DNA of 19,137 nt from the IMG/VR virus record IMGVR_UViG_2690316028_000003, positions 1 through 19,137 of that record; one strand, given 5' to 3'. The notes under the pieces are model-generated. The model ran no database searches. It had not been told where the DNA came from and saw nothing but the letters and a program-made list of their open reading frames with translations. The stretch's first letter is position 1. Each line of letters starts with the position of its first letter. The stretch comes from a virus. Lineage: Duplodnaviria; Heunggongvirae; Uroviricota; Caudoviricetes. The position numbers and the translations under genes were made by a program. This document shows, piece after piece, positions 4,468-19,137 of this stretch.

Positions 4468-4546
4468 AATAGGCTCCTGAAATTTGGTTGTGCGCTGCCC
4501 GTCTGCGATAGCCGGACGAGTAGGGGTAATGGGTGTTTGGTGTGGT

Positions 4547-4789: not shown

Positions 4790-4792
4790 AAC

Positions 4793-4912: not shown

Positions 4913-4926
4913 CTGGTGATTGATGG

Positions 4927-5058
4927 CTATTTCATTGCGCGTAATAAGACCTCAACTCTTTTCCATCCGTCACGTAATTTACGGGTGATTCGTTCAAGTA
5001 AAGATTCATTTAGTTGGAAGGCACCCATGCGAGCGCCTCCCGCGATTGCGTAAATCAT
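4927..5058 (-). CDS. cIII: CIII-like FtsH inhibitor (43 aa)
   Basis: Manual translation MIYAIAGGARMGAFQLNESLLERITRKLRDGWKRVEVLLRAMK; core ESLLERITRKLRDGWKR matches lambda CIII; AAGGAA SD 6 nt upstream; below ORF-track size cutoff. Confidence 0.7.
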   Translation of the reverse strand: MIYAIAGGARMGAFQLNESLLERITRKLRDGWKRVEVLLRAMK

Positions 5059-5082
5059 GGGTGGTTCCTTATGTTGGTTTTA

Positions 5083-6051
5083 TTAGTAGGTTATTTTTGT
5101 TGCGAATACTTCGCCTTTTACGATGGCTGTTATGATATTTTTAGCAACATCTTCTGATGCGCCAACCTTGATAAGGTCAGCAAGTATTTTGTTATTTACT
5201 TCTTTCCGGTGAGCTTTATCCTTTGCTCTACGCTCTTCTTCTTCCTTGATTCTTTTTTCTTCTGCTATTCTGGCTTGCTCTTTTGCTTCAGCCTCGCGCC
5301 TGATTCGTTCAGCCTCCTCCTGTGCTTTTCGGCGTTCTGCTTCAATTGCCGCCTGCTTTTCTCTTTCAGCTCGTTCTGCTGCCTCTTTTGCTTCGCGCTG
5401 TGCTCGTTGCTCGGCTTCAATGCGTTCACGCTCTGCACGTTCCGCTGCGGCCTTAGCTTCTGCTTCTCGCCTTGCTGCTGCTTCAATTTCGGCTTTTGCC
5501 TTTGCTTCGGCTTCTGCTCTGGCTTTCTCTTCAGCTTCTCTTTTTAAGCGTTCTTCATGCTCTCGCTTTTCCTGCTCCGCTTTGAGTCTTGCCTCTTCTC
5601 TTTGGCGGTCAAATTCGCGATCCATCAAAAACGCTATTTCATGGTCAGACTCAATTTGCTTTGCGAGAGCTTCAGCTGCTGCCTTAGCTTCTTCTTCGGC
5701 TTTAATCCGCGCCTGTTCTTCCTCATAATCAGTAAGAGGCTGGCGCGCCTTGGCTTTCAGTTCATCAAGGCGATCGCGCACTGTCTTGCGGTTAGCATCA
5801 ATTAGCTTTGGAATTTCCTTCAGTTCAGCAACAAGGTCTTTGCCAAGACCATCGAGATATGTTTTCGTCTGCGCAACTTTATACGCCAGAGAAGCGATCT
5901 CCTTTCTGCCCTTTGCCGTTGTGATATCAGGCACAAAGGACATAACTTCACGTTCAACCTTTTGAAGGATTTCTTCAATCTGGTCGGCAGACTGAAATAC
6001 AGTCATTGCATTTGCTTTTTCAATAACAACTAAATCTGTTACTTCACTCAT
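5083..6051 (-). CDS. hypothetical protein with about 170-aa E/A/R/K-rich charged helical (SAH/coiled-coil-like) central segment
   Basis: ORF track 322 aa; GGAGGA SD upstream of ATG 6051; central region is REAEEKARAEAEAKAKAEIEAAARREAEAK...; globular N- and C-terminal ends. Confidence 0.65.
   Translation of the reverse strand: MSEVTDLVVIEKANAMTVFQSADQIEEILQKVEREVMSFVPDITTAKGRKEIASLAYKVAQTKTYLDGLGKDLVAELKEIPKLIDANRKTVRDRLDELKAKARQPLTDYEEEQARIKAEEEAKAAAEALAKQIESDHEIAFLMDREFDRQREEARLKAEQEKREHEERLKREAEEKARAEAEAKAKAEIEAAARREAEAKAAAERAERERIEAEQRAQREAKEAAERAEREKQAAIEAERRKAQEEAERIRREAEAKEQARIAEEKRIKEEEERRAKDKAHRKEVNNKILADLIKVGASEDVAKNIITAIVKGEVFATKITY
5230..5700. repeat. low-complexity imperfect short repeats (gcttc/ctgc-rich) encoding the E/A/R/K segment
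   Basis: Visible short-period repetition on the plus strand; produces spurious Cys/Phe/Ser-rich plus-strand ORFs (5209..5547, 5246..5728). Confidence 0.5.
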
Positions 6052-6063
6052 ATATCCTCCATC

Positions 6064-6091
6064 AAAAAATTGCCCTCACACTGGAGGGCAA
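6064..6091 (-). terminator. intrinsic terminator inside the pL operon (tL-like)
   Basis: 8-bp stem ttgccctc/gagggcaa (6070..6077 with 6084..6091), 6-nt loop; on the minus strand it is followed by UUUUUU (plus a-run 6064..6069). Confidence 0.5.
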
Positions 6092-6182
6092 AGAAGATTT
6101 CCAATAATCAGAACAAGTCGGCTCCTGTTTAGTTACGAGCGACATTGCTCACATAGCAGACTCGCAAATCTGCTATAGGTGC

Positions 6183-6344
6183 TTATTCGCATCGCATGAC
6201 AACATCAAATTTTTCGAGATTACTTTGTCGCAACAATCCCTCTTCTACGCGGTCAGCTTTTCTATAATTATCAAATTCGAAATGTTTAATTACTTCTTTC
6301 GTTTCTCGCTCTATAACTTCAACAATGTATTTCTTATTCATCAT
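6183..6344 (-). CDS. small hypothetical protein (53 aa)
   Basis: MMNKKYIVEVIERETKEVIKHFEFDNYRKADRVEEGLLRQSNLEKFDVVMRCE; ATG at 6344 overlaps TGA stop of upstream gene (ATGA coupling); track's longer version starts inside the upstream gene. Confidence 0.45.
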   Translation of the reverse strand: MMNKKYIVEVIERETKEVIKHFEFDNYRKADRVEEGLLRQSNLEKFDVVMRCE

Positions 6345-6619
6345 TCTTCCCCCAGGGCCTTGCTGATGGCTGCCTTGGCTCGTTTGTATTCGGTTAACTC
6401 TCTGCACCCTTCGTCATGCTCGTAAAGGAAGACAAGCTCTTGCAGTGCTTCAAGCAAATCAGGAGCTGCTGCTATCAGTAGCGCATCCTCCCTTTCATTT
6501 CTTGTTGCTGCTTCAATGTATGTGTCACCAATCGTCACACCATGGAACGTAGTCATCATCTCGTTGACGTTTCTAACCGTGTACTTCCATTTACCAGGCG
6601 TACCCTTAAACTCTTTCAT
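6341..6619 (-). CDS. small protein, Ead/Ea22-like C-terminal-domain family (paralog of 4547..4789)
   Basis: From ATG 6619 (GAGG 5 nt upstream): MKEFKGTPGKWKYTVRN...LLIAAAPDLLEALQELV...AKAAISKALGEE; track start at 6625 is GTG. Confidence 0.55.
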   Translation of the reverse strand: MKEFKGTPGKWKYTVRNVNEMMTTFHGVTIGDTYIEAATRNEREDALLIAAAPDLLEALQELVFLYEHDEGCRELTEYKRAKAAISKALGEE

Positions 6620-6649
6620 ATCCACCTCTGTTGTTTATGCCAAAGCAAA

Positions 6650-6817
6650 TTTAACCATCAACAAACTCTTCTGGTAATTTATCAACCAGTTGATGACTTA
6701 TTATCAGCCATTTGCCATCCTTCGTTTCGTATGCATATTTCTGGTCTTTTATCATCATGTGTTCGGCTACTGCCCTAACTGCCTGATCGGTGACATCTTC
6801 TCTCTTTCCTACCCACA
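6650..6817 (-). CDS. small hypothetical ORF (55 aa), in frame with and directly after a 24-codon ORF (6818..6892)
   Basis: Manual translation MWVGKREDVTDQAVRAVAEHMMIKDQKYAYETKDGKWLIISHQLVDKLPEEFVDG; no SD of its own; upstream mini-ORF has strong GAGGA SD and ends with TGA immediately before this ATG. Confidence 0.25.
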
Positions 6818-6949
6818 TTCATTTTTCAGTGTTTAATGTTCCTTGAAAAATACGACCGCTTAATGGGCTTGCGCCCATAGTTTTTACTCTCATGTATCAG
6901 TCCTCAAATAAGTGGTTTGCTGCGAAAATAAATCCGCTTAAGTTACCTG

Positions 6950-7087
6950 TTATTTATCCCACCAAGTTCCGTATCTATCTATCCAGTTACACCAATCATC
7001 GACACTCCATTTTGTTGTGTCGCATTTTGGCAACTGGCATGAATATCTACCTTCTTTGTAAAGTCGGCGTTTGACTTTCTTGAGCAT
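6950..7087 (-). CDS. small Cys/Trp-rich hypothetical protein (45 aa)
   Basis: Manual translation MLKKVKRRLYKEGRYSCQLPKCDTTKWSVDDWCNWIDRYGTWWDK; ATG 8 nt after N stop with GAGG about 6 nt upstream. Confidence 0.3.
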   Translation of the reverse strand: MLKKVKRRLYKEGRYSCQLPKCDTTKWSVDDWCNWIDRYGTWWDK

Positions 7088-7095
7088 GGCTCACC

Positions 7096-7428
7096 TCAAT
7101 CGTAATAAGCTGGAATTGATTTTCCGCGTTGTTTCTGGCGGCCTACACAAGTCACACCCATTTCACTGCGTGGCTTGCTGTACCATGTGCGCTGATTCTT
7201 GCGCTCAATACGTTGCAGGTTGCTTTCAATCTGTTCGTGGTATTCAGCCAGCACCGTAAGGTCTATCGGATTCAGTGCGCTTTCTACTCGTGATTTCGGT
7301 TTGCGATTCAGCGAGAGAATAGGGCGGTTAACTGGTTTTGCGCTTACCCCAACCAACAGGGGATTTGCTGCTTTCCATTGAGCCTGTTTCTCTGCGCGAC
7401 GTTCGCGGCGGCGTGCTTGTGCATCCAT
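7096..7428 (-). CDS. N: antitermination protein N
   Basis: From ATG 7428 (AGGAG SD): MDAQARRRERRAEKQAQWKAANPLLVGVSAKPVNRPILSLNRKPKSRVESALNPIDLTVLAEYHEQIESNLQRIERKNQRTWYSKP..., near-identical to lambda N including the arginine-rich motif; track's upstream ATG at 7479 lacks a good SD. Confidence 0.9.
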   Translation of the reverse strand: MDAQARRRERRAEKQAQWKAANPLLVGVSAKPVNRPILSLNRKPKSRVESALNPIDLTVLAEYHEQIESNLQRIERKNQRTWYSKPRSEMGVTCVGRQKQRGKSIPAYYD

Positions 7429-7600
7429 CTTGATTCTCCTGTCAGTTAGCTTTGGTGGTGTGGTAGGTGGGAGACCCATTTCGACCTGCTTCGGCCGACT
7501 TCAATTCGGCAATAGTTCCGCAGGCCTCGCCGCTTTACGTGCGACATATTCCCATCCATGAACCCTTCACCACACCCCAAAGCCTTCTGCTTTGAATGCT

Positions 7601-7631
7601 GCCCTTCTTCAGGGCTTAATTTTTAAGAGCA
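7601..7631 (-). promoter_or_regulatory. nutL (boxA plus boxB) N-utilisation site
   Basis: Minus-strand reading gives TGCTCTTAA (boxA-like, 7631..7623) followed by GCCCTGAAGAAGGGC (boxB hairpin, 7615..7601), matching lambda nutL boxB exactly. Confidence 0.85.
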
Positions 7632-7670
7632 TCACCTTCATGGTGGTCAGTGCGTCCTGCTGATGGCTAG

Positions 7671-7699
7671 ATAATCACAAATTGTGTTCGTGCTGTCAA
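7671..7699 (-). promoter_or_regulatory. pL-like early-left promoter
   Basis: Minus strand TTGACA (7699..7694), 17-nt spacer, GATTAT (7676..7671); overlaps operator sites; points toward nutL and N. Confidence 0.6.
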
Positions 7700-7734
7700 C
7701 ACGAAATGTGATTGTTTTTATCACAACACGTGTT
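7674..7734. promoter_or_regulatory. OL: three repressor operator sites
   Basis: 15-bp dyads ATCACA-AAT-TGTGTT (7674..7688), AACACG-AAA-TGTGAT (7698..7712), ATCACA-ACA-CGTGTT (7720..7734); centre spacing 24 and 22 bp. Confidence 0.6.
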
Positions 7735-7772
7735 TTCATTGATTTTTAAGGTAATTTAATTTTCTTTGGGCA

Positions 7773-7806
7773 ACAAAAAACCCGCCGAAGCGGGTTTGAT
7801 GTTTTT
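7773..7806. terminator. bidirectional intrinsic terminator downstream of cI
   Basis: aaaaaa-CCCGC-cgaa-GCGGG-tttgatgttttt: GC hairpin with an A-run on one side and T-rich run on the other; 15 nt past the cI stop. Confidence 0.55.
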
Positions 7807-7820
7807 AAGTGGCGGGTATA

Positions 7821-8462
7821 TCAGGAGAATTTCATCATCATCTGCACTGCTACGCCGATTATCTTGCAGTTGCCGTCGATTGGGATCAACGGATAGGCAG
7901 GGTTAAGCCCTTTCAGGTATTTGTTACCGCCATCAATGATTAGCTTCTTGAACGTGGCTTCATTAGCATCTGTCAGCTTCGCAACTACCAGGCTTCCATT
8001 AACGGCTTCCTTTCCAGTGTCGAACAGAACCAGCATACCCTCAGGAACGCTAAGGCCGGTAGGAGCTGTCATTGAGTCGCCCTGAACCCTGAGCCAGAAG
8101 GCGTCACCGACAACGTGACAATCTGATTCATACCACTCATCCACTGCCTGAGGGTTGTACGGCTCTACGGCCTCACTCCATGCACCTGCGCTAACCCAGC
8201 TAATCAACGGAAACTTTTCCCCTGGCTTGTATTGTCCCTGATAGTTGTCGCCAAAAAGCAGTTCTGCCGGAGCGACGCCCAAAGCTTTAGCTATTACCTC
8301 TGCGTCATCAACACTAACGCTTCTGGTTCCTGATTCATAGTTGCCGATCCGAGATTGTGAAGCCCAGCCGCAAAGCTCCGCCAGCGCCTTCTGTGAAAGC
8401 CCTTTATCTTCCCGTAATCGCTTGATACGCGCGGCGATAGTTTCTGTTCTGTTCATGCGCAT
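7821..8462 (-). CDS. cI: CI-type prophage repressor (N-terminal HTH, C-terminal LexA-like S24 autopeptidase)
   Basis: 213 aa; HTH segment LSQKALAELCGWASQSRIGNYESG; probable Ala-Gly cleavage site in SAGAW; catalytic QGDSM serine motif and downstream Lys; ATG sits within about 10 nt of a TATAAA -10-like element, suggesting a near-leaderless pRM transcript. Confidence 0.85.
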   Translation of the reverse strand: MRMNRTETIAARIKRLREDKGLSQKALAELCGWASQSRIGNYESGTRSVSVDDAEVIAKALGVAPAELLFGDNYQGQYKPGEKFPLISWVSAGAWSEAVEPYNPQAVDEWYESDCHVVGDAFWLRVQGDSMTAPTGLSVPEGMLVLFDTGKEAVNGSLVVAKLTDANEATFKKLIIDGGNKYLKGLNPAYPLIPIDGNCKIIGVAVQMMMKFS

Positions 8463-8467
8463 TTTAT

Positions 8468-8529
8468 ATCACATTCCGTGGTTTAAGGCTTTACACGATT
8501 TGTGTTGACTATCAATCACAATATGTGTT
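8468..8529. promoter_or_regulatory. OR: three repressor operator sites
   Basis: ATCACA-TTC-CGTGGT (8468..8482), TACACG-ATT-TGTGTT (8492..8506), ATCACA-ATA-TGTGTT (8515..8529); same half-site consensus as OL. Confidence 0.6.
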
Positions 8530-8533
8530 TAAT
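8505..8533 (+). promoter_or_regulatory. pR-like early-right promoter
   Basis: TTGACT (8505..8510), 17-nt spacer, TTTAAT (8528..8533); overlaps the two cro-proximal operators. Confidence 0.55.
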
Positions 8534-8566
8534 AAAGACTGAGTGAACTAGCTCTTAAGGAAACCT

Positions 8567-8782
8567 ATGAACAACATTGCCAACGAACGGAAAAAGCTTG
8601 GCATCACTCAATCTGCGTTAGCAGGCGCGTGTGGCTGGAACCAGTCCCGCTTAGCTAACTACGAGTCAGGTATCCGGACTCCAGATTTAGAGTCGTGCCG
8701 TCGCCTGGTAAAGGCGCTGAATAAATTGGGGAGCAAGACAACGCTAGATGGCTTGTTCCCGCCGGAACACAAAGCCGCTTAA
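8567..8782 (+). CDS. cro: Cro-like HTH regulator
   Basis: 71 aa; HTH LGITQSALAGACGWNQSRLANYESG; first gene after pR, divergent from cI; AAGGAA SD. Confidence 0.75.
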   Translation: MNNIANERKKLGITQSALAGACGWNQSRLANYESGIRTPDLESCRRLVKALNKLGSKTTLDGLFPPEHKAA

Positions 8783-8790
8783 GACATTCC

Positions 8791-8822
8791 CGCTCTTACA
8801 CATCCCCGCCCTGAAAAAGGGC
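8791..8822 (+). promoter_or_regulatory. nutR (boxA plus boxB)
   Basis: CGCTCTTACACA (boxA, 8791..8802) and GCCCTGAAAAAGGGC (boxB, 8808..8822); the stretch from here to cII appears essentially lambda-identical. Confidence 0.85.
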
Positions 8823-8901
8823 ATCAAATTAAACCACACCTATGGTGTATGCATTTATTTGCATACATTCAATCAATTGTTATCTAAGGAAATACTTACA
8901 T

Positions 8902-9180
8902 ATGGTTCGTGCAAACAAACGCAACGAGGCTCTACGAATCGAGAGTGCGTTGCTTAACAAAATCGCAATGCTTGGAACTGAGAAGACAGCGGAAGCTGTG
9001 GGAGTTGATAAGTCGCAGATCAGCAGGTGGAAGAGGGATTGGATTCCAAAGTTCTCAATGCTGCTTGCTGTTCTTGAATGGGGTGTTGAAGACGAGGAGT
9101 TGGCGGAACTGGCTAAGAAAGTAGCCAGAATGCTGACAAAAGAAAAAGCCCCGAAGAACGGCGAATTCTTCGAGGCCTGA
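8902..9180 (+). CDS. cII: transcriptional activator CII
   Basis: From ATG 8902: MVRANKRNEALRIESALLNKIAMLGTEKTAEAVGVDKSQISRWKRDWIPKFSMLLAVLEWGV..., near-identical to lambda CII over the first roughly 60 residues; track start at 8842 is an upstream in-frame Met. Confidence 0.9.
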   Translation: MVRANKRNEALRIESALLNKIAMLGTEKTAEAVGVDKSQISRWKRDWIPKFSMLLAVLEWGVEDEELAELAKKVARMLTKEKAPKNGEFFEA

Positions 9181-9214
9181 TGTAGAAAGACTGGATCAAT
9201 CCACAGGAGTAATT

Positions 9215-9376
9215 ATGACAAAACGTCGTAAGAAATACCAGGAAAAAGAAGAGATTCGACACCCTGATTCACCTGAGGGATTAGTGGTAGCCGCAGCAAA
9301 TAACAGGGCGTTCGCAGAGCGCCTTGTTGGTGTTTACAGACTAGCCAAAGCAGGAGTGAAACATGGGCGTCGTTAA
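9215..9376 (+). CDS. small basic hypothetical protein (53 aa)
   Basis: Manual translation [53 protein letters not shown]; AGGAG SD 5 nt upstream; overlaps O start by 14 nt. Confidence 0.35.
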   Translation: MTKRRKKYQEKEEIRHPDSPEGLVVAAANNRAFAERLVGVYRLAKAGVKHGRR

Positions 9377-10184
9377 GTTAGCTGATTACAGGCCTCAACT
9401 GGAGGTCGTGGAGCATCGCGTGGCAGATACCGAAGATGGTTTCATGCGCGTTGCTAACGAGATTACCGACAGTCTGCTGATGGCTGATTTAACCGTCCGG
9501 CAGATGAAGGTGATGCTCGCTATCATGCGCAAGACATACGGATTCAATAAGCCGATGGATCGACTCACAAACACGCAGATAGCAGCCATGACAGGTATTC
9601 ATCACACTCATGTTTGCGCTGCCAAGCGCCAGCTTATTGAGCGTAAATTCCTCATTGCTGATGGCGTGAAAATCGGAGTGAACAAGGTGGTTTCTCAGTG
9701 GATTAGCCAGGACAGCTTAACATTAGCTAAAACAGCTAATAAAACATTAGCCAAGTCGGCTAATGGGTATAAGCCAAGTCAGCTAAACACAAAAGACAAT
9801 ATACAAAAGACAATAAATACAAATACCCCCTTACCCCCTAACGGGGGTGGCGATGGGCAGGTTAAACCTGAACGTCGCAAGGCAGAACGAATCGACTACG
9901 AATCCTTCCTGAACGCCTACAACACCGAAGTCGGTGACAGACTGCCACACGCTGTTTCGGTCAACGAGAAACGCAAACGCCGCCTGAAGAAAATCATCCC
10001 GCAACTGAAAACGCCAAACGTGGACGGTTTCAGAGCGTATGTCAGGGCGTTTGTGCATCAGGCCAAGCCGTTTTACTTCGGAGACAACGACACGGGCTGG
10101 ACGGCCGATTTTGATTACCTGTTGAGGGAAGATTCGTTAACGGGAGTACGGGAAGGGAAGTTTGCAGACAGGGGGATTTCATGA
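9363..10184 (+). CDS. O: replication initiator, lambda O-like N-terminal domain
   Basis: N-terminal region ...[37 protein letters not shown]... resembles lambda O (DLTKRQFKVLLAILRKTYGWNKPMDRITDSQL); AGGAG SD; iterons inside the gene. Confidence 0.8.
9703..9825. repeat. origin-like iterons (four copies) plus AT-rich tract inside the O gene
   Basis: TTAGCCAGGACAGCTTAA (9703..9720), TTAGCTAAAACAGCTAA (9723..9739), TTAGCCAAGTCGGCTAA (9747..9763), AAGCCAAGTCAGCTAA (9771..9786), each with internal dyad TTAGC...GCTAA, followed by an A/T-rich run acacaaaagacaatatacaaaagacaataaatacaaata. Confidence 0.55.
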
Positions 10185-11557
10185 GACAGGATATCGAAGC
10201 GAGCGTTATCGGTGGCCTGCTGATTGGTGGATTAACGCCAACCGCCAGCGACGTTCTGGCAACGCTGGAGCCGGAAGCGTTTTCAATTCCGCTCTACCGG
10301 AAAGCCTTCGAGGTTATCCGCAAGCAGGCGAGAAACAGAAACCTAATCGATGCGCTGATGGTTGCCGAGGCGTGCGGAGAGGAGCATTTCACGTCAATCC
10401 TGATGACCAGCAAAAACTGCCCGAGTGCCGCAAACCTGAAGGGATATGCCGGAATGGTCGCGGATAACTATCACCGCCGTCTGGTGCTGGAAATCATGGA
10501 TGAAATGCGTGAACCAATTCAGAGCGGAACCATCGACGCATCGAGTCAGGCGATGGATGAACTTGTAAAGCGTCTCTCAGCCATCAGAAAGCCCCGTAAC
10601 GAGGTTAAACCGATACGGTTAGGGGAAATCATCACTGACTACACTGACACGCTTGACAGGCGTCTGAGGAACGGAGAAGAGTCAGATACCCTGAAGACCG
10701 GAATCGAAGAACTTGACGCCATCACCGGAGGGATGAACGCGGAAGACCTTGTGATAATCGCTGCTCGTCCTGGTATGGGGAAAACCGAACTGGCGCTGAA
10801 GATTGCCGAAGGCGTTGCAAGCCGCGTTATTCCTGGTTCTGACGTCCGGCGCGGGGTATTGATTTTCTCAATGGAAATGAGCGCATTGCAGATTGCAGAG
10901 CGAAGCATTGCCAACGCCGGGAGGATGTCGGTTAGCGTACTGCGAAATCCTGCATCGATGGATGACGAGGGCTGGGCACGTGTTGCTAACGGCATGAGTC
11001 AGCTTGCAGATTTGGATGTATGGGTAGTCGATGCCTCGCGGTTATCGGTCGAAGAAATACGCTCAATCGCAGAACGGCACAAACAGGAAAATCCAAACCT
11101 GTCACTCATCATGGCGGATTATCTTGGCCTGATTGAGAAGCCGAAAGCAGACCGCAACGACCTTGCAATTGCTCACATCTCCGGAAGCCTGAAGGCGATG
11201 GCGAAAGACCTGAAAACGCCTGTTATCTCCCTGAGTCAGCTTTCGCGCGATGTTGAGAAGCGACCAAACAAACGCCCGACAAACGCAGATTTGCGTGATT
11301 CAGGAAGCATTGAACAGGATGCAGACTCAATCATCATGCTCTATCGGGAAGCGGTATATGACGAGAACAGTAGCGCCGCGCCATTTGCTGAAATCATTGT
11401 GACGAAAAACCGTTTTGGCTCGCTTGGTACGGTTTACCAGCGGTTCTGCAACGGACACTTTGTTGCATGTGACCAGGATGAAGCCAGACAGATTTGCACA
11501 ACATCAAATGCACCCGCTGCACGTGGCAGACGATATGCACAAGGGGCTGACGTATGA
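10181..11557 (+). CDS. DnaB-family replicative DNA helicase (P22 gp12-like)
   Basis: 458 aa; Walker [10 protein letters not shown]; DnaB-like N-terminal domain; ATG overlaps O stop (ATGA). Confidence 0.85.
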
Positions 11558-11658
11558 CCATCTACATCACTGAGCTAATAGCAGGGTTATCGTTACTAAT
11601 GGTTCTTACTGTATATATTATTAAGTATATTCTTTATGCGAATAAAAAAACTAATTGA
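11554..11658 (+). CDS. possible small hydrophobic membrane peptide (34 aa)
   Basis: Manual translation [34 protein letters not shown]; ATG overlaps helicase TGA (ATGA); one predicted TM helix with a basic C-terminus; overlaps the start of the next HNH gene in another frame. Confidence 0.2.
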
Positions 11659-12247
11659 TCACGATGAGCTTCTGTCAACATTATCATATGACTCAGAAAC
11701 AGGAATATTTAAATGGCTAAAAACAAATTCAGTAGTAAGAGTAAAAGGTAGTATTGCTGGAGGTGTTAGTGGTGGTTATATATGCATTAGCATAAATAAT
11801 GTTTTGTATTATGCGCATAGACTTGCTTGGTTCTATGTATACAAAAAATGGCCTCCTAAGTTTATTGATCATGTAAATGGGAACAGACTTGACAATAGGA
11901 TTTCAAATCTAAGACTGGCAACAGAAGAGCAGAATGCAAGAAACATTGTAGGGAATAGATTAAACACATCCGGTGCAATTGGAGTGTCTTGGTATAAGCC
12001 AACTGGCAGGTGGAAGTCTTATGTTGGTTATAAAAATAAGACAATATCGTTAGGGTATTTCGATAGCAAAGAAGATGCAGCATTCATAGCAGCACTAGCA
12101 AGAAAGAAACTATATGGAACTTATGCGAGTAAAGCACTTAATTGCGAGCATGAGCTTTTATCTCAATTTAATAATGATGAGGATAAACTTGCGGAATATC
12201 TTAAGGAAAAATCTAAAAGGACTCGAAATCGTGTTAAAAACAGATAA
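11636..12247 (+). CDS. HNH homing endonuclease (HNH_3 plus AP2-like DNA-binding domain)
   Basis: YYAHRLAWFYVYKKWPPKFIDHVNGNRLDNRISNLRLATEEQN (HNH_3) then GVSWYKPTGRWKSYVGYKNKTISLGYFDSKEDAAFIAA (AP2-like); visibly AT-rich compared with the flanking helicase and ninB; no clear SD. Confidence 0.75.
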   Translation: MRIKKLIDHDELLSTLSYDSETGIFKWLKTNSVVRVKGSIAGGVSGGYICISINNVLYYAHRLAWFYVYKKWPPKFIDHVNGNRLDNRISNLRLATEEQNARNIVGNRLNTSGAIGVSWYKPTGRWKSYVGYKNKTISLGYFDSKEDAAFIAALARKKLYGTYASKALNCEHELLSQFNNDEDKLAEYLKEKSKRTRNRVKNR

Positions 12248-12279
12248 AGGCCTGCTGGTAATCGCAGGCCTTTTTATTT
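12248..12279 (+). terminator. intrinsic terminator (tR2-like) between the replication module and nin region
   Basis: Stem aggcctgc/gcaggcct (8 bp), 8-nt loop, then TTTTTATTT. Confidence 0.65.
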
Positions 12280-12295
12280 GGGGGAGAGGGAAGTC

Positions 12296-12736
12296 ATGAA
12301 AAAACTAACCTTTGAAATTCGATCCCCAGCACATCAGCAAAACGCTATTCACGCGGTGCAGCAAATTCTTCCAGACCCAACCAAGCCAATCGTAGTGATC
12401 ATTCATGAGCGCAACCGCAGCTTAGACCAAAACAGGAAGCTATGGGCCTGCTTAGGTGACGTCTCTCGTCAGGTTGAATGGCATGGTCGCTGGCTGGATG
12501 CAGAAAGCTGGAAGTGTGTGTTTACCGCAGCATTAAAGCAGCAGGATGTTGTTCCTAACCTTGCCGGGAATGGCTTTGTGGTAATAGGCCAGTCAACCAG
12601 CAGGATGCGTGTAAGCGAATTTGCGGAGCTATTAGAGCTTATACAGGCATTCGGTACAGAGCGTGGCGTTAAGTGGTCAGACGAAGCGAGACTGGCTCTG
12701 GAGTGGAAAGCGAGATGGGGAGATCGGGCTGCATGA
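12296..12736 (+). CDS. ninB: NinB (Orf-family recombination mediator)
   Basis: From ATG 12296: MKKLTFEIRSPAHQQNAIHAVQQILPDPTKPIVV...ARLALEWKARWGDRAA, near-identical to lambda NinB; track start 12278 is an upstream TTG. Confidence 0.9.
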   Translation: MKKLTFEIRSPAHQQNAIHAVQQILPDPTKPIVVIIHERNRSLDQNRKLWACLGDVSRQVEWHGRWLDAESWKCVFTAALKQQDVVPNLAGNGFVVIGQSTSRMRVSEFAELLELIQAFGTERGVKWSDEARLALEWKARWGDRAA

Positions 12737-13095
12737 CTATCAAATCAAATACGGCAGCGTCAGATAGGTATCGGCTTATTGAGGATTATCTGTATTTAGA
12801 CGGAGATACAGTCAGATACAAAAAGGACTCGCTAAAACACCCCAACCACAGCCACCGGGCCGGAGATGAAATTAAAACATCGATAAATGGATCTGGGTAT
12901 AGACAGGTGTGTTTTGCAGGCATTCAGATGTTTGTTCACGTAGTTGTTTTTGCGCTGCACAACAAAAGAATGCCATTGAAAAATATTGACCATATTAACG
13001 GAAACAGGCTGGACAATTCCCCAAAAAATCTTAGGGAGGCAAGCCGGATAGCAAACAGCCGAAATCAGAAAACTAAGTTCAATAGCCGTTCTTGA
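12733..13095 (+). CDS. HNH endonuclease, HNH_3 domain only; an in-frame TGA separates it from an AP2-like domain that continues to 13260
   Basis: From ATG 12733 (overlaps ninB stop): MTIKSNTAASDRYRLIEDYLYLDGDT...VHVVVFALHNKRMPLKNIDHINGNRLDNSPKNLREASRIANSRNQ; after TGA at 13093..13095 the same frame stays open for 54 codons ([54 protein letters not shown]). Confidence 0.6.
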   Translation: MTIKSNTAASDRYRLIEDYLYLDGDTVRYKKDSLKHPNHSHRAGDEIKTSINGSGYRQVCFAGIQMFVHVVVFALHNKRMPLKNIDHINGNRLDNSPKNLREASRIANSRNQKTKFNSRS

Positions 13096-13256
13096 ATAAA
13101 AAATGTTTTATGGAACAAGCAAAAAAATAAATGGGCCGTTCAAGTGCGCACAGATTTTGGCCGGTTGCATTTTGGGTTCTATGAAGATCTTGAGCTTGCT
13201 GGTTTGGTTGCCAGTGAGGCTATCAACAAATATCACGGACAATATGCGAGGGTTGA

Positions 13257-13787
13257 ATGATTAAGCATAAATCAGAAACACCAAAAGAAGTTAGAGACTG
13301 CTGGCAAACGCCGCTCTGGCTTTTTGATGCACTGGATATTGAGTTTGGATTCTGGCTGGACTCAGCTGCGAGCGACAAAAATGCTCTGTGCGCTCACTGG
13401 CTAACTGAGGCCGACGACGCGCTCAATTCTGAGTGGGTAAGCCACGGTGCAATCTGGAATAACCCACCGTACAGCAATATCAGGCCGTGGGTGGAAAAAG
13501 CCGCTGAGCAGTGCATACAACAGCGACAGACGGTAGTTATGCTTGTGCCAGAGGATATGTCAGTCGGATGGTTCAGCAAGGCTCTGGAGAGTGTCGACGA
13601 AGTTCGCATTATCACTGATGGACGGATTAATTTTATCGAACCATCGACAGGGCTGGAGAAGAAGGGAAACAGCAAAGGCTCAATGCTGCTGATTTGGCGA
13701 CCGTTCATCAGTCCTCGACGAATGTTTACTACCGTATCCAAAGCGGCATTGATGGCGATCGGGCAGGGCGTCAGGAGGGCGGCATGA
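13257..13787 (+). CDS. phage Dam-like DNA N6-adenine methyltransferase
   Basis: 176 aa; [18 protein letters not shown]...[10 protein letters not shown] (NPPY catalytic motif IV); ATG overlaps the upstream stop. Confidence 0.8.
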
Positions 13788-13960
13788 GGCGACAGCGACG
13801 AAGTATCACCGACATCATCTGCGAAAACTGCAAATACCTTCCAACGAAGCGCTCCAGAAATAAATGCAAGCCAATCCCAAAAGAATCTGACGTAAAAACC
13901 TTCAACTACACGGCTCACCTGTGGGATATCCGGTGGCTAAGACATCGTGCGAGGAAATGA
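13784..13960 (+). CDS. ninE: NinE
   Basis: From ATG 13784 (ATGA overlap with the methyltransferase stop): [58 protein letters not shown], near-identical to lambda NinE. Confidence 0.85.
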
Positions 13961-14361
13961 CAATGGATTATTCACAGTTAAGTGATTTTGAAATTAACGT
14001 GGCGGTATTCGAAGCCATTCATAACGGATCACCGGATTACAAAGAAGGTGAGAATGGCGATATGGTGTTTGTCTCATTTGAGGGAGACATTGTAAACGGA
14101 GACGCAGTTGAAGTAGAAGTTGAGCGCGGATCCTTTAACCCATGCGCAAACCCAGCAGACGCATGGCCGATCATCACTGAAAACAAAATTAGCACCATGT
14201 GGATGACAGCGGAAAAAGAATGGTGCGCATGGTCAGGAGGTGATTTAGAGGAAGGTTGTTGGGAATGGGAAAATATTCCTGGCTACTACTTCTGCGGTGA
14301 ATCTCCACTCCGCGCCGCCATGATTGTATTTCTCATGATGCAGGACGCCAATAATGCTTAG
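13957..14361 (+). CDS. ninX: NinX-like protein
   Basis: From ATG 13957 (ATGA overlap with ninE stop); sits between ninE and ninF as ninX does in P22; Cys/Trp-rich C-terminus; family assignment is from recall. Confidence 0.5.
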
Positions 14362-14530
14362 CCCATCCCAATCCCTTCAATACCAGAAAGAAAGCGTCGA
14401 GCGAGCTTTAACATGCGCTAACTGCGGTCAGAAGCTGCATGTGCTGGAAGTTCACGTGTGCTCCGATTGCTGCGCAGAACTGATGAGCGATCCGAATAGC
14501 TCAATGTACGAGGAAGAAGACGATGAGTGA
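14354..14530 (+). CDS. ninF: NinF
   Basis: Manual translation [58 protein letters not shown], near-identical to lambda NinF; below ORF-track size cutoff. Confidence 0.85.
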
Positions 14531-15314
14531 GTTAATGAATGGCAATGCCATCAAAATGACAAGCATTGAAATCGCTGAGTTGGTAGAAAGCCGCCATAGC
14601 AATGTAAAAGTATCCATAGATAGATTGGTGAAACGTGGCGTTATCAAGCCTCCTGCATTGCAGCACACTAACATAATCAATGATTTAGGTGTTATTACCG
14701 GGAAGCGTGATTTCTACGTCTTCGAAGGCGAACAAGGAAAGCGAGACAGCATTATTGTCGTCGCCCAGTTGTCGCCAGAGTTCACCGCTCGCCTTGTTGA
14801 CCGCGGCGCGGAAAACGTCGAGCGCCTGGAGCTGATTACTATGCCTTGGTTCCGGGCTGTGCGAGGAAACCATGAGCAGATGATGATTGATGGGCTATCG
14901 GAGTATGGGAACGTCAATCACTGGTTGGCAAATGGTGGCGGCTGGTTCTTCAATCTCGACTATGACAAAGAAGTGCTGGCTAAGGCTCTGGTTCACAAAG
15001 CAGCTGAGCTGCCACTCGTCATCGAGCTGGTTACCGCTGAGCGTAAAATCGTTATCTGCCACGCTGACTACCCGCATAACGAATATGCGTTCGATAAGCC
15101 CATCCCGAAAGATATGGTCATCTGGAATCGAGAGAGGGTTAGCGACGCACAGGACGGCATTGTATCGACGATAGCCGGTGCTGATCTGTTTATCTTCGGC
15201 CACACCCCAGCGCGCCAGCCCCTGAAGTATGCCAACCAGATGTACATCGACACCGGCGCCGTGTTCTGCGGAAACCTCACGCTGGTAAAGGTGCAAGGCG
15301 GTGAACATGCGTAA
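14523..15314 (+). CDS. chimeric protein: Rha/antirepressor-like N-terminal segment fused to lambda Ser/Thr phosphatase (NinI) C-terminal region lacking motif I
   Basis: Residues from about 93 ([34 protein letters not shown]...FIFGHTP...[21 protein letters not shown]) closely match lambda phosphatase residues about 52..221; N-terminal 90 aa ([25 protein letters not shown]...) carry no GDxHG motif and the GD of GDxxDRG is replaced by AR. Confidence 0.7.
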
Positions 15315-15948
15315 ACCATCCCGCCGTAAGTGCAAAGTATGCGGGGAATACTTCGTGCCGAAATTCCACGATATCCGGATCCGCTGGTGCAGCCCGGAGC
15401 ACGGCGCAATCCTCGCGATGGAAGAACGTCAAAAGGAGAAGGTGAAAGCCGCTGCTAAGCGCATTAAGGAGCAGAAGGAGGCAGAGAAGGCCGGGCGCAA
15501 ACGCCGCAAGGAGAGGCTGGCAGAGCTACGCCCAGCAGGTTACTACAAAGCGCAGGCTCAGCAGGCATTCAACGCCTACATCCGTGCGCGCGATGCTGAT
15601 TTGCCATGCATCAGCTGCGGAGAGACCAACCCGCCAGATCTGCATGGCGGCCAATGGGACTGCGGCCACTTCAAAACAGTAGGTGCTTACCCTGAACTGC
15701 GCTTTGAAGAGCGCAATGCCCATAAGCAGTGCAAATCCTGTAATGCCGGAGCGGGCAAATATACCGCCAAAGAGGCGACGGTAGCGCAGCAATACGAAGC
15801 TGGTCTGGTCGCTCGTTACGGGCAGGAGTACGTGGACTGGCTCAACGGCCCCCACGAAATGACCAACTACCGCCGTGAAGACTTCATTCGGATCCGCGAT
15901 GAATACCGCGCCAAGCTCAAAGCACTGAAACAGTGGGAGGCCGCATGA
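15307..15948 (+). CDS. ninG: NinG/Rap recombination-associated endonuclease
   Basis: [16 protein letters not shown]...WCSPEHG...[27 protein letters not shown]...HKQCKSCN...; matches lambda NinG motifs ([35 protein letters not shown]); track start 15301 is GTG. Confidence 0.85.
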
Positions 15949-16061
15949 ACCAAGCCGATTTCCTCCGTTACCAGGCAGAAAGCGTTAAGCGCGCCAGCAT
16001 GCCGCCAATAGTAAAGCACAGCCAGACCAAAACCCACCAGCCACAGAAGGAAGCCGCATAA
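15945..16061 (+). CDS. small hypothetical protein (38 aa), NinY/NinH-position ORF
   Basis: Manual translation [38 protein letters not shown]; ATG overlaps ninG stop (ATGA) and its stop overlaps the Q start codon. Confidence 0.3.
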   Translation: MNQADFLRYQAESVKRASMPPIVKHSQTKTHQPQKEAA

Positions 16062-16870
16062 TGAACCTCGAATCAATCGCTAAATACTTTGCGCCTAAAT
16101 CACCGATGTTCAGTGACTCTCCTCGCGCAACCGCATCAGACAGTCTCACCGGCACTGACGTTATGGCGGCGCTTGGCCTTGCTGGCCACAAGTGCGGGTT
16201 TGGTTTCGATCTTTACCTCTCGAAAATCGGCATTAGCAGCCCAGATATAGCACTGGAGAGACTCTATGAGCAGGCACGTAAGTTATCAGGTAAATTCAGA
16301 GCACTGTCTGAACTCGATGAATCAGCTCGGTCAGGCGTGCTTAAGGTTCTCTGCGCTTTTGCATACCAGGATTATTCAAGAAGTGCTGCCAGCACTCGAA
16401 AATGTGATTGCTGTGATGGTGGCGGATTTACAGAGGCGCAAGTGTTTACCAACAAGGTCTCATACCCATGGGGGAAACCGCCTTACTGGTCGAAAATGTC
16501 GCGTGCCGTTCGCCCAAGCGACTGGGAGAGCTGGACACAGGCGCGTGAGGTGGTGCGAGTTAAGTGCAAGCCGTGTAACGGAAAAGGCGTTATCAGCAAT
16601 TCGTGTCGCTGCCATGGCAAAGGTAAGGTGCTGGACAAGGCAGAAAGCGATCGCCAGGGCGTTCCAGTAATGAAAGCCTGCGACCGCTGCGGTGGTAGAG
16701 GTTACGCCAGGCTTAAGTTCTCAACGGTAATTGAGGGCGTTAATACTGTTGCGGAGATAAAGAAAACGGCGGCATATGAGCAACTTCAGCCGCTATTTGA
16801 GGAGTTGGTCGCCGAATGCCATAAACAGGAGTCTATGGCTGATTCCATTCTCTCAAAAGTAACGAGATGA
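16061..16870 (+). CDS. Q: late-gene antiterminator Q
   Basis: 269 aa with three Cys pairs (CKPCNGKG, CRCHGKGKV, CDRCGGRGY); last gene of the nin region, immediately upstream of a promoter/terminator-rich gap and the lysis cassette. Confidence 0.7.
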   Translation: MNLESIAKYFAPKSPMFSDSPRATASDSLTGTDVMAALGLAGHKCGFGFDLYLSKIGISSPDIALERLYEQARKLSGKFRALSELDESARSGVLKVLCAFAYQDYSRSAASTRKCDCCDGGGFTEAQVFTNKVSYPWGKPPYWSKMSRAVRPSDWESWTQAREVVRVKCKPCNGKGVISNSCRCHGKGKVLDKAESDRQGVPVMKACDRCGGRGYARLKFSTVIEGVNTVAEIKKTAAYEQLQPLFEELVAECHKQESMADSILSKVTR

Positions 16871-16912
16871 AAATAATTTTCCCTAATGTTGAAAATATAT
16901 AGGAAATAGGTA

Positions 16913-16941
16913 TTGCATTTCGCGGAAAAACTGGATAGATT
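16913..16941 (+). promoter_or_regulatory. candidate late promoter PR' (qut region)
   Basis: TTGCAT (16913..16918), 17-nt spacer, TAGATT (16936..16941), about 45 nt past Q stop and about 50 nt before the first terminator. Confidence 0.3.
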
Positions 16942-16990
16942 CATCTCTAACGCTGGGAATCCGTTCAGTCGTTCCGAAGCCAAAAAAATT

Positions 16991-17027
16991 CAAGCCCGAG
17001 GTTAACGCCTTGGGCTTTTTTTATTTC
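16991..17027 (+). terminator. intrinsic terminator (tR'-like)
   Basis: caagcccgagg-ttaacg-ccttgggctt followed by TTTTTTTATTT; an A-run upstream makes it potentially bidirectional. Confidence 0.6.
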
Positions 17028-17283
17028 TTTGTGGCCTAAATCGCTTCGAGCCAAAAAAACGCGGAGAACGACATCACCCCTCTCCGCAATAACGACTCAA
17101 TCTCATACCCGCTTGTCTTTCTTTTATCCACAAATAGGTAAAGCCATAACTTAGTGGAAATGGTAACAGCTAAAAACTATTTGAAAAGCTAATTATTTTT
17201 TGCATCAACTGGCTATTCTTAAGGATTGTTTAATTTTTTGCTTTCCTAGCGAGAAAGAAGCTCCGGAAACTATCAATCAATAC

Positions 17284-17311
17284 AAGGCTGCCGTTCGGCG
17301 GCCTTTTTTAT
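17284..17311 (+). terminator. second intrinsic terminator just upstream of the holin gene
   Basis: GC-rich hairpin ggctgccg-ttcg-gcggcc followed by TTTTTTATT. Confidence 0.55.
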
Positions 17312-17348
17312 TCCTAGCAACAGCACTCGCACAAAGCGAGGTGAGAGT

Positions 17349-17573
17349 ATGTATCGCATGGACAAACTAACCACTGGTGCTGCCTATGGCGCTTCAGCCG
17401 GGAGCATCCTAAACGGCATGTTGAATGCCTACAGCCCCGAGCAGTGGAACGCTATCGGCGTGCTGGTGGGTATCATCATTGCCGTAATGACGTATCTGAC
17501 AAATCTCTATTTCAAAATCCGCGAAGACAACCGCCGCAGCAGGAGCCGAGATGAACCCAACGTTGAGGAATAA
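17349..17573 (+). CDS. S: S21-type pinholin with dual-start motif (class II holin/antiholin)
   Basis: [65 protein letters not shown]...; two TMDs (Gly/Ala-rich TMD1), [12 protein letters not shown] matches phage 21 S as I recall it; Met1 and Met4 starts; GAGGTGAG SD. Confidence 0.8.
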
Positions 17574-18045
17574 GCTGGTGGGTGCCATTGTTGGCGGATC
17601 AGGGGCAATCACTATTGCTGCAGTAATGCTGGGCAATGCGGATGGACTCGAAGGTCGGCGTTATTACGCCTATCAGGATGTGGTCGGCGTCTGGACCGTT
17701 TGCGATGGGCACACTGGTACCGACATTCGCCGCGGTCACCGATATACCGACAAAGAGTGTGACAACCTGCTTAAGGCAGATCTGCGAAAGGTGGCAAGCG
17801 CCATCGACCCGCTGATCAAGGTTCGCATCCCTGAGCCAACCCGCGCCGCGCTTTACTCCTTCACCTATAACGTTGGCTCTGGTGCTTTTGCCAGCTCGAC
17901 GCTGCTGAAGAAGCTGAACTCCGGTGATGTTCCGGGTGCGTGTAAAGAACTGCAGCGCTGGACTTATGCTGGTGGCAAGCAGTGGAAGGGGCTGATCACC
18001 CGGCGCGAGATTGAGCGTGAAGTCTGCGAGTGGGGCCAGAAATGA
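17551..18045 (+). CDS. R: SAR endolysin (GH24 T4-lysozyme-type, phage 21 R-like)
   Basis: N-terminal signal-anchor-release domain [20 protein letters not shown]; catalytic E-x8-D-x5-T in [24 protein letters not shown]; overlaps holin 3' end. Confidence 0.85.
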
Positions 18046-18500
18046 GCCGATTAACCGCAATCATCTGCGCTGTCGTTATCTGCCTGCTGGTTTCCATGGC
18101 CTGGGCCATTAACCACTACCGCGACAACGCCATCACTTACAGAGACCAGCGCGATAAGGCCACTGAGAAACTCCTCCTGGCGACCGCCACCATTAAAGAC
18201 ATGCAGACCCGCCAGCGTGATGTCGCTGCACTGGATGCCAAATACACCGGAGAACTGGCTGATGCGAAAGAAACCATTGAGCGTCTGCATAGCGATGTCA
18301 TTGCTGGTCGTAAGCGCCTGCAAGTCGCCGCCACCTGTGCAAAGTCAACGACCGGAGCCGGCGGCATGGGCGATGGAGAAAGCCCAGGACTTACAGCAGA
18401 TGCTGAACTCAATTATTACCGTCTCCGAAGTGGAATCGACAAGATAACCGCGCAGGTTAACTACCTGCAGGAGTACATCAGGACTCAGTGCCTGAAATAA
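18042..18500 (+). CDS. Rz: i-spanin Rz
   Basis: From ATG 18042 (ATGA overlap with endolysin stop): [23 protein letters not shown]... N-terminal TMD then coiled-coil periplasmic domain; track start 18030 is GTG. Confidence 0.75.
18262..18447 (+). CDS. Rz1: o-spanin Rz1 lipoprotein, embedded in the +1 frame of Rz
   Basis: [36 protein letters not shown]...; lipobox LVVSAC with proline-rich mature region; lies wholly within Rz. Confidence 0.7.
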
Positions 18501-18530
18501 TTTTTTTGCAAATCACAAAGTCCATTTAAT

Positions 18531-18557
18531 GAGCCTCGCGATGCGGGGCTTTTTATT
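18531..18557 (+). terminator. intrinsic terminator after the lysis cassette
   Basis: agcctcgc-gat-gcggggct hairpin (one G-U pair) followed by TTTTTATT. Confidence 0.6.
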
Positions 18558-18578
18558 CCCAACTCTATAGGTAATTTT

Positions 18579-19049
18579 ATGACCCAGCATATTGGCGTAA
18601 AACTGATTAACGCCTTTCCGATGACGAGACAGGCATATAACGATTTTCGTGGCTGGCAGCTTCCTGCCGGAGAAAACGGCGAGGATGAAGGCTATCTGGT
18701 TGAATATCTTGATGGCGGAAAACCTAACACCGATCGCTTTGATGGCTACGTTAGCTGGAGTCCAAAAGAAGTATTCGAAAAGGCTTATCGTCCGGTATCA
18801 GGGCTAAGTTTCGGCCTTGCCATTGAAGCGCTCAAGTTGGGGAATAAAGTTGCCCGTGCTGGCTGGAATGGTAAGGGGATGTATCTGTTCATTATCCAGC
18901 AGAATGCTTGGGGGTTTGAGTGTGACCTGGACGGAGTTAATGGCCTTGTGACGCTGCCATGCATTTGCATGAAGACAGCGGACGATAAATTAGTACCGTG
19001 GCTGGCTAGTCAGACTGATGTTCTAGCAGAAGACTGGCAAATCATTTAA
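18579..19049 (+). CDS. hypothetical late accessory protein with DUF2829-like (Tad2-like) C-terminal domain
   Basis: 156 aa; C-terminal GLSFGLAIEALKLGNKVARAGWNGKGMYLFII...KTADDKLVPWLASQTDVLAEDWQII resembles DUF2829 as I recall it; N-terminal about 70 aa unassigned; follows a terminator with weak SD. Confidence 0.55.
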   Translation: MTQHIGVKLINAFPMTRQAYNDFRGWQLPAGENGEDEGYLVEYLDGGKPNTDRFDGYVSWSPKEVFEKAYRPVSGLSFGLAIEALKLGNKVARAGWNGKGMYLFIIQQNAWGFECDLDGVNGLVTLPCICMKTADDKLVPWLASQTDVLAEDWQII

Positions 19050-19137
19050 CCATGTAGGCATTACAAAGCCCATCTACGGGTGGGCTTGATAATGGATATC
19101 CCCCTGAGCGGATAAATCAAAAATAACCCCTGCAACG

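Follow-up and report, generated by a model that had tools for sequence, protein, structure and literature searches.

A candidate anti-Thoeris sponge downstream of the lysis genes of a lambdoid coliphage joins a Tad2-like domain to an N-terminal domain common to several sponge families

The Tad2 family of anti-defence proteins holds the closest described relatives of the gene examined here. Its founding member, SPO1 Tad2 (Gp34.65; PDB 8SME/8SMF/8SMG/8WJE), is a single 89-aa domain from a lytic Bacillus phage that acts against Thoeris as a sponge for glycocyclic ADP-ribose (gcADPR). HgmTad2, also named AcrIIA7 (PDB 8KBI-8KBM, 9KZR), has the same DUF2829 core and in addition a second pocket, for cGG and cGAMP, formed by an insertion of 41 aa. 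ModTad2 (PDB 8V3E/9EIB) is a sponge for histidine-ADP-ribose (His-ADPR) directed against type II Thoeris, with no inhibition of type I. Outside this family, RyR-Tad, which is gp68 of Pectobacterium phage vB_PatP_CB1, was described in June 2026 as a gcADPR sponge whose N-terminal domain is a β1 strand-swapped dimer in the crystal (10.64898/2026.06.04.730250). Here we analyzed a stretch of viral DNA of 19,137 nucleotides (IMG/VR record IMGVR_UViG_2690316028_000003, positions 1 to 19,137; hereafter the window), which stems from a temperate lambdoid coliphage and in which an open reading frame (ORF) at 18579..19049 on the plus strand encodes a 156-aa protein with a Tad2-like domain in its C-terminal half. 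An orthologue, Kapi1_043 of phage vB_EcoP_Kapi1, has already been proposed in print to be a Tad2-like anti-defence protein (PMC12922286), and what sets the present gene apart from all characterized Tad2s is its N-terminal domain. We think it probable that the product is a two-domain anti-defence sponge, in which the Tad2 part would sequester 1''-3' gcADPR (3'cADPR) and the N-terminal domain would act as a scaffold.

The ORF begins at the first start codon after an in-frame stop, an ATG with a Shine-Dalgarno-like AGG(T) upstream at 18569-18572, and continues for 156 codons plus a stop. Family phrog_872 covers the protein over its full length (E=1e-68). A large protein collection contained 7,988 homologous clusters, and in the best 120 of these the match extends over at least 85% of the query (98-100% in most). 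The close relatives all come from E. coli, Klebsiella and other enterobacterial phages or prophages, and the orthologues in E. coli phages and prophages carry DUF2829 or Tad2-like annotation. Taken with the structural model described below, these results support a complete ORF at 18579..19049 (+) in which an N-terminal, sponge-associated domain is followed by a Tad2-like domain.

The first-pass annotation of this DNA, made by a model from the letters alone, had placed the C-terminal half in DUF2829 on the strength of a sequence pattern. Both strings that it quoted, EALKLGNKVARAGWNGKGMYLF and VPWLASQTDVLAEDWQII, are present in the protein, and a profile search agreed with the assignment: PF11195 ('Tad2-like', formerly DUF2829) matched residues 77-156 with 93.8 bits against a cut-off of 25 (E=9.3e-27), the match taking in positions 2-73 of the 73 in the profile. 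We set the domain at residues 75-156 (18801..19046, +). Searches with phmmer against PDB sequences returned SPO1 Tad2 (4e-17), ModTad2 (4e-16), HgmTad2/AcrIIA7 (1e-14), the 158-aa pdAcrIIA7 (7e-15) and SptTad2 (6.5e-14). We then modeled the protein with AlphaFold2 from 56 homologues, which gave a mean predicted local distance difference test score of 90.0; the predicted template modeling score of 0.63 is that of a monomer and has no bearing on assembly. The comparison with solved Tad2 structures suggested in the first-pass annotation turned out in its favor, as the C-terminal part of the model has the Tad2 fold and superposes on them.

Residues that bind ligand in the characterized proteins are largely retained. 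Residue mapping placed two pocket motifs on the plus strand, G95-W96-N97-G98 (18861..18872), which corresponds to W25/N26 of SPO1 Tad2 and W21/N22/G23 of HgmTad2 and is invariant in the 56 homologues, and W141-LASQTDVLAED-W153 (18999..19037), which holds the counterparts of SPO1 W73, S76, T78 and D79. The gcADPR contacts and water ligands of SPO1 Tad2 are W25, N26, I63, T65, D67, H71, W73, S76, T78 and D79 (10.1101/2023.05.01.538930), and they map, respectively, to W96, N97, M131, T133, D135, V139, W141, S144, T146 and D147. Eight of the ten are identical, I63 to M131 is conservative, and H71 is changed to V139. A similar picture emerged for the gcADPR pocket of HgmTad2, formed by W21, N22, G23, M76, A78, T82, V84, W87, L88, S90, T92 and D93 (10.1101/2023.11.15.567273), where 10 of 12 positions are identical and the other two are A78 to T133, as in SPO1 Tad2, and T82 to K137. 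In HgmTad2 the W21A/N22A substitution causes loss of gcADPR binding and mutation of S90/T92/D93 likewise abolishes it (10.1101/2023.11.15.567273); all five of these residues are identical in the ORF protein. The earlier proposal that this gene could encode an anti-Thoeris protein or other signal sponge is backed by every in silico test, and we retain it as a candidate function.

The second pocket of HgmTad2 is a different matter. That site, which binds cyclic dinucleotides, is built from an insertion of about 41 residues between β2 and β5 with R31, P32, D34, L36, K46, S47, F70 and T71, together with N85, and binding is abolished by each of S47A, F70A and R31A/N85A (10.1101/2023.11.15.567273). 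In the ORF protein the variable β2-β3 insertion (residues 107-127; 18897..18959, +) is short, as in SPO1 Tad2, and amounts to about 16 residues by comparison with about 36 in pdAcrIIA7. The positions equivalent to R31, P32 and D34 are I106, Q107 and N109, N85 is deleted, and the region of S47 and F70 is absent. Among homologues the insertion has a mean pairwise identity of 0.17, as against 0.71 for the Tad2 core. Because the insertion has shrunk and R31, P32 and N85 are changed, the domain is, judged by its residues, of the SPO1 single-pocket type and lacks the cyclic-dinucleotide site of HgmTad2.

To narrow down the ligand we compared the domain with the Tad2 proteins whose phenotypes and sequences are given in Table S2 of Hadary et al. 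(10.1101/2025.08.24.671296). The ORF protein was 51% identical to Tad2_82, 46% to Tad2_70 and 40% to ModTad2, and its Tad2 domain was 48% identical to SPO1 Tad2. Tad2_82 and Tad2_70 are the closest tested sequences and carry GWNG and WLASQ[AT]D as the ORF protein does, although both come from metagenomes and consist of a single domain (80 and 97 aa); Tad2_82 inhibits type I Thoeris, Tad2_70 inhibits type I and Pycsar, and Tad2_71 inhibits types I, II and IV (10.1101/2025.08.24.671296). The pocket motif of the ORF protein reads WLASQTDVLAEDW. All five tested carriers of GWNG with W[LV][AP]SQ[TA]D (SPO1 Tad2 and Tad2_70, 71, 82 and 83) inhibit type I Thoeris, and the three tested carriers of PS[IVS][GS]D (ModTad2, Tad2_68 and Tad2_76) inhibit type II, ModTad2 having WTPSVSD where the present protein has WLASQTD. 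Since the tested sample is small and the family plastic, we take 3'cADPR to be the most likely ligand on these sequence grounds, and not the only one possible.

We hypothesize that the Tad2 domain would assemble as a homotetramer of two interlocked V-shaped dimers, like the solved Tad2s, with pockets at the interfaces that sequester, without degrading it, the 3'cADPR made by ThsB, the Toll/interleukin-1 receptor (TIR) protein of type I Thoeris. In such pockets W96 and W141 would stack on the ligand and make van der Waals contacts, phosphates and hydroxyls would be bound by N97 and D147, T146 would recognize the adenine, and M131, T133, D135 and S144 may also contribute to binding. Removal of the signal would keep the NAD-cleaving effector ThsA inactive, and with ThsA left unactivated the phage would replicate.

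A possible alternative, which we nevertheless doubt, is that the Tad2 domain serves mainly as a sponge for His-ADPR (type II Thoeris), for N7-cADPR (type IV) or for the cyclic mononucleotides cCMP and cUMP (Pycsar), instead of or besides 3'cADPR. Each of these molecules is bound by some member of the Tad2 family, Tad2_71 inhibits three Thoeris types with the very same WLASQTD motif, and Tad2_70 shares LPCI.MKTA with the ORF protein in addition to inhibiting Pycsar, a system that E. coli strains do encode (the E831 system). The Pycsar activity of Tad2_70 is not predictable for the ORF protein, however, and the pattern among tested proteins runs the other way: every bearer of the present pocket motif inhibits type I, and those that inhibit only type II have PS[IVS][GS]D.

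We now turn to the part of the protein that no characterized Tad2 has. The first-pass annotation had mentioned an extra N-terminal domain, and residues 1-74 (18579..18800, +) indeed form a domain distinct from the Tad2 part, with a β-β-α-β-β-α fold that the AlphaFold2 model predicts with confidence. The domain has no Pfam match even at E≤10, and searches of NCBIfam families and of PDB sequences also gave no match. Across the 56 full-length homologues it is more conserved than its partner, with a mean pairwise identity of 0.73 versus 0.57 for the Tad2 half and 26 of 74 positions invariant versus 13. Two loops, RGWxLPxxENGxDEG and DGGKPN, are nearly invariant.

An exhaustive phmmer search with the N-terminal domain alone retrieved 1,603 representative clusters, in which the domain is N-terminal, central or C-terminal within proteins 72-370 aa long. 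Among the best 150 of these clusters the Pfam partners were Tad2 (PF11195; 53), PF21825 (37) and PF13876 (20). PF21825 is Sequestin, a sponge for 3'cADPR (10.1101/2025.07.12.664507), and PF13876 is Acb4, a sponge for 3'3'-cGAMP (10.1101/2024.12.30.630793). Classification by hidden Markov models (HMMs) resolved the architectures further, giving 45 N-Tad2 proteins (plus five in which the Tad2 match is split in two), 24 N-Sequestin, nine Acb4-N-Sequestin, seven N-Acb4, four Acb4-N and rarer triples such as N-Tad2-Sequestin. Representative P0242 joins the domain to Tad1 (E=9e-11 to CmTad1) and P0137 joins it to an RyR domain.

The last of these fusions is matched by a relationship to RyR-Tad itself. 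The N-terminal domain aligned with that of gp68 by BLASTP (E=5e-6; 34% identity over 67 aa), a profile HMM of the domain scored 24.8 bits against gp68 over positions 2-70, and Foldseek paired the domain model with an RyR protein of Yersinia phage TG1 (E=2.5e-4, template modeling score 0.74). From sequence and model, the two N-terminal domains are homologous, so that RyR-Tad carries the same N-domain family on a gcADPR sponge domain that differs from Tad2 in being all-helical and RyR Repeat12-like. The family has diverged, since gp68 has ANKPDLIGDPGS in place of RGWxLPxxENGxDEG and its DGGKPN loop is deleted. With both near-invariant loops missing, a negative result obtained with gp68 need not transfer to the present family. 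Counting RyR-Tad, the fusions with Tad2, Sequestin, Acb4 and Tad1 link the N-terminal domain to five structurally unrelated sponge families that experiments have validated.

In the literature that we searched, no paper recognizes the domain as a module common to sponge families. The domain occurs in 137 INPHARED phage records, which include phage N4, the prototype crAssphage (as a fusion to Acb4) and a Clostridium phage, and at least 102 two-domain proteins are listed in the original Tad2 paper's homologue table. The N4 protein, RefSeq gp49 (EPNV4_gp49, 160 aa), has the same N-domain plus Tad2 layout (107 bits to the N-domain HMM; E=8e-24 to PF11195) and adjoins an Acb4 gene in the N4 anti-signaling hotspot, but it is 49% identical overall, belongs to a lytic member of the Schitoviridae, and is flanked by replication genes and the gene for the virion RNA polymerase and not placed behind lysis genes. 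The nomenclature at that locus (L005:2609-3459) invites error, as the Pfam family named 'N4 Gp49' (PF13876) matches RefSeq gp48 and RefSeq gp49 is the N-domain plus Tad2 protein, so that 'N4 gp49' can mean either gene.

Three identifications of the N-terminal domain were considered and set aside. It is not PF13876 under the name 'N4 gp49', which matches the neighboring N4 gene, RefSeq gp48. It is not Lockin, an all-β curved protomer that forms a cog-like hexamer and is absent from INPHARED, the N-domain being an α/β domain of 74 aa with 137 records there. Nor is it the 'head' of pdAcrIIA7, which consists of two helices in 48 aa and is unrelated to a 74-aa β-β-α-β-β-α domain.

By analogy with RyR-Tad, we lean towards the view that the N-terminal domain is a dimerizing scaffold that would pair protomers and organize the assembly, possibly with an additional activity. 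A rather unlikely but tentative alternative is that the N-terminal domain holds the key activity, either as a further sponge or inhibitor of a signal or host factor or as a counter to guards that sense sponges (Panoptes-like), which would make the protein a dual-function fusion like Tad2-Acb4 or Acb4-Sequestin. Sponges often fuse with each other (Tal et al.), the domain is joined to five sponge families, and its two predicted loops hold many invariant polar or aromatic residues, including R24, W26, E32, D36, D45 and N50. The domain is also found by itself, in short proteins of 65-92 aa. Were it an anti-defence module in its own right, such as a sponge or inhibitor directed at an immune signal or a guard system, this would explain the five-family fusions, the conservation above that of the Tad2 domain in the same proteins, and the invariance of the domain amid the Tad2 exchange described below; we consider such a module less likely than not, though there is real room for it. 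The dimerizing scaffold remains our preferred role.

Some representatives classified as N-domain only (P0185, P0205, P0247 and others) have C-terminal domains without a match to a known sponge, for example a WDGH domain. In P0185 and P0205 the N-domain is fused to a shared 'AWGWHCNIAMAAFDAGCPH' domain that has no PDB match. By guilt-by-fusion we regard these unexplained partners as candidate new sponge families. Separately, P0194 (354 aa) contains the N-domain, HNH_3 plus AP2 domains of the homing-endonuclease type, and Tad2; it looks like an inserted mobile endonuclease or a fused ORF call.

The alleles of this gene in E. coli show the two domains evolving differently. The gene matched 45 of 5,426 complete E. 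coli genomes, and only eight of these over at least 80% of its length, because part or all of the Tad2 sequence beyond its first helix has been exchanged among the alleles. In three alleles compared with window positions 18579-19046 (L010:2501-2977, L011:1501-2019 and L012:1801-2322), the N-terminal domain and the first Tad2 helix were 100% identical. The allele type of G3/10 and Kapi1 encodes 173 aa, as opposed to 156 aa here, and only its insertion loop is swapped, in G3/10 for a longer, unrelated one; the flanking parts of the Tad2 domain are identical in Kapi1_043 and its kin, and the Kapi1 genome matches the DNA of the gene likewise in two pieces (82% coverage). The 55989 type (159 aa) has exchanged its entire Tad2 domain for another, in which the type-II-like motif WVPSIGD stands in place of WLASQTD, and this allele resembles the ModTad2 class instead. 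The copies in Louie and EC2001 are about 99% identical to the present gene at the DNA level. These sequences suggest that recombination diversifies sponge specificity among the E. coli alleles.

In the E. coli 55989 prophage (L010:2501-3591) the N-domain-Tad2 gene is followed by an Acb4 (PF13876) homologue, the pair standing between lysis genes and terminase. With an Acb4 homologue as the next gene, the slot acts as a small anti-signaling island. In P22-like and lambdoid prophages such an island has a parallel in the N4-like hotspot that was described in 2026.

The genomic setting given in the first-pass annotation, downstream of Rz/Rz1 and an intrinsic terminator, was borne out by the ORF list, identity to phage phi80, a terminator scan and folding. 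Window positions 17300-18554 are 97.9% identical to the holin-lysozyme-Rz/Rz1-terminator region of phi80. Directly upstream of the gene lies the Rz spanin gene (18042..18500, +; phi80 PHI80_60/61; ORF 18030..18500), with Rz1 (18262-18447; ORF 18217..18447) embedded in it, followed by a G+C-rich hairpin with a T-run (18531..18556, +) that phi80 annotates as a putative rightward terminator. The scan placed this hairpin at 18531-18551 plus the T-run, and its folding energy was -15 kcal/mol (z=-3.3). On the other side of the gene, a hairpin at 19059..19094 (+) without a clear T-run (-20.5 kcal/mol, z=-5.2) marks the 3' end of the shared cassette, and homology to Louie, IME10, HZ41, Kapi1 and HK544 stops at window position 19094, just past it.

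Homology to phi80 ends at 18554, and phi80 has rha at that position, which makes the gene an insertion by comparison with that phage. Orthologous cassettes occupy the same post-spanin slot in Kapi1, Louie, IME10, HZ41, Huey and E. coli prophages. In coliphages the gene is always 3' of the spanin gene, whichever lysis cassette is present, and the cassette is common to phages and prophages with unrelated lysis modules. The upstream hairpin and the 27-nt leader are kept in Kapi1 and Ec55989 despite a different upstream gene. As an observation apart, this conserved, terminator-like hairpin stands only 27 nt 5' of the ATG, and its role may be termination or transcript stabilization. Our best overall explanation, which we hold with reasonable though not full confidence, is that a mobile cassette of the form hairpin-gene-hairpin (a 'moron' of the lambdoid kind) has inserted 3' of the lysis genes and encodes a two-domain anti-defence protein. 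The moron features seen at this locus are the insertion and the flanking hairpins; prophage expression is known from the orthologue only.

That expression is strong. By RNA-seq, Kapi1_043 was the most highly expressed prophage gene in lysogens in both media (PMC12922286). It is improbable, in our view, that the gene acts mainly in the lysogen, where it would buffer a nucleotide messenger of the host or disable the host's signaling defences as a form of lysogenic conversion. The moron position between hairpins and the expression in a host without Thoeris (PMC12922286) would fit this role, as would the finding that HgmTad2 purifies with cyclic di-GMP bound (10.1101/2023.11.15.567273), but the pocket for that molecule is absent from the present allele. 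Spontaneous induction may explain part of the RNA-seq signal, capsid and scaffold genes also being high (PMC12922286), and a prophage that expressed the gene constitutively would equally be armed in advance of induction.

Several points weigh against a two-domain anti-Thoeris sponge carried as a moron. Strong expression during lysogeny is not obviously what a sponge needed at infection would require, and the Kapi1 host, as its authors noted, has no Thoeris (PMC12922286). A scan of window positions 16800-19137 found no sigma-70-like promoter on the plus strand, and inspection of 18500-18578 by eye revealed no convincing one. None of the 18 Tad2 homologues tested by Hadary et al. carries the N-domain motifs, and in the part of Table S12 of Yirmiya et al. 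available to us, which lists the at least 102 two-domain proteins, the only 'Tested' flag belongs to ModTad2. Several tested homologues inhibited nothing (10.1101/2025.08.24.671296), so that few proteins stand behind the motif rule. The specificity of Tad2 is plastic, with members that bind His-ADPR, N7-cADPR, cUMP/cCMP or cyclic dinucleotides. Finally, an N-terminal 'head' blocked the activity of the DUF2829 protein pdAcrIIA7 (PMC13133391), and the N-terminal domain here could likewise modulate function.

The reading that fares worst is an anti-CRISPR function. The enterobacterial hosts of the gene are not known to have type II CRISPR-Cas or Cas9, and E. coli is generally known to carry type I CRISPR-Cas without Cas9 or tracrRNA. 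That the protein binds tracrRNA and blocks assembly of the Cas9 ribonucleoprotein in the manner of AcrIIA7 is very hard to credit: AcrIIA7 is a DUF2829 protein (8kbi and 9kzr match in sequence at E of about 1e-14 to 6e-16), a head-less AcrIIA7 binds tracrRNA according to a 2026 paper (PMC13133391) and 'anti-CRISPR protein' is the product name in phages Louie, Huey and Mimir124, but full-length pdAcrIIA7 with its N-terminal domain is inactive (PMC13133391) and an N-terminal domain is present in the ORF protein too, AcrIIA7's long extended domain has no counterpart here, and an independent laboratory did not reproduce the anti-Cas9 activity of HgmTad2 or other Tad2s (10.1101/2023.11.15.567273). 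The label on the coliphage orthologues (Louie L002:3469-3939, Huey and Mimir124) is probably a misannotation transferred from AcrIIA7.

If our preferred reading of a two-domain sponge is right, the gene enlarges an already very large family by another probable Thoeris-signal sponge, one that common E. coli prophages carry. As an orthologue is the top-expressed prophage gene in a lysogen of a gut commensal, it may affect how lysogens and prophages handle signaling immunity. The wider interest lies in the N-terminal domain, which has no Pfam entry and is thereby invisible when fusions are searched for through Pfam, as was done in finding Sequestin. Its role would tell whether some accessory function (assembly, stability or guard evasion) is required by sponges in common or whether the domain is another inhibitor, and either way it offers a simple sequence handle for new sponge families. 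Were it an independent module, the 'AWGWHCNIAMAAFDAGCPH' and WDGH partners would be leads to further families by the logic used for Sequestin. The E. coli allele series, in which the N-domain stays constant and the Tad2 loop or domain is swapped, amounts to a natural experiment in the diversification of sponge specificity.

The remaining late-region features were assigned by identity to phi80, with holin at 17349-17573 and lysozyme at 17551-18045. Upstream of these lysis genes is a phi80-type Q antiterminator gene (269 aa, 16061-16870), and between Q and holin are two terminator-like hairpins (16992-17017 and 17284-17305) that match the two putative terminators annotated in phi80. The window as a whole is a mosaic relative to known phages, its best overall match, mEp213, covering only 40% at 97.8% identity. 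In mEp213 no coding sequence is annotated where the gene would correspond, though the alignment reaches window position 19115, and that phage may hold a remnant of the gene.

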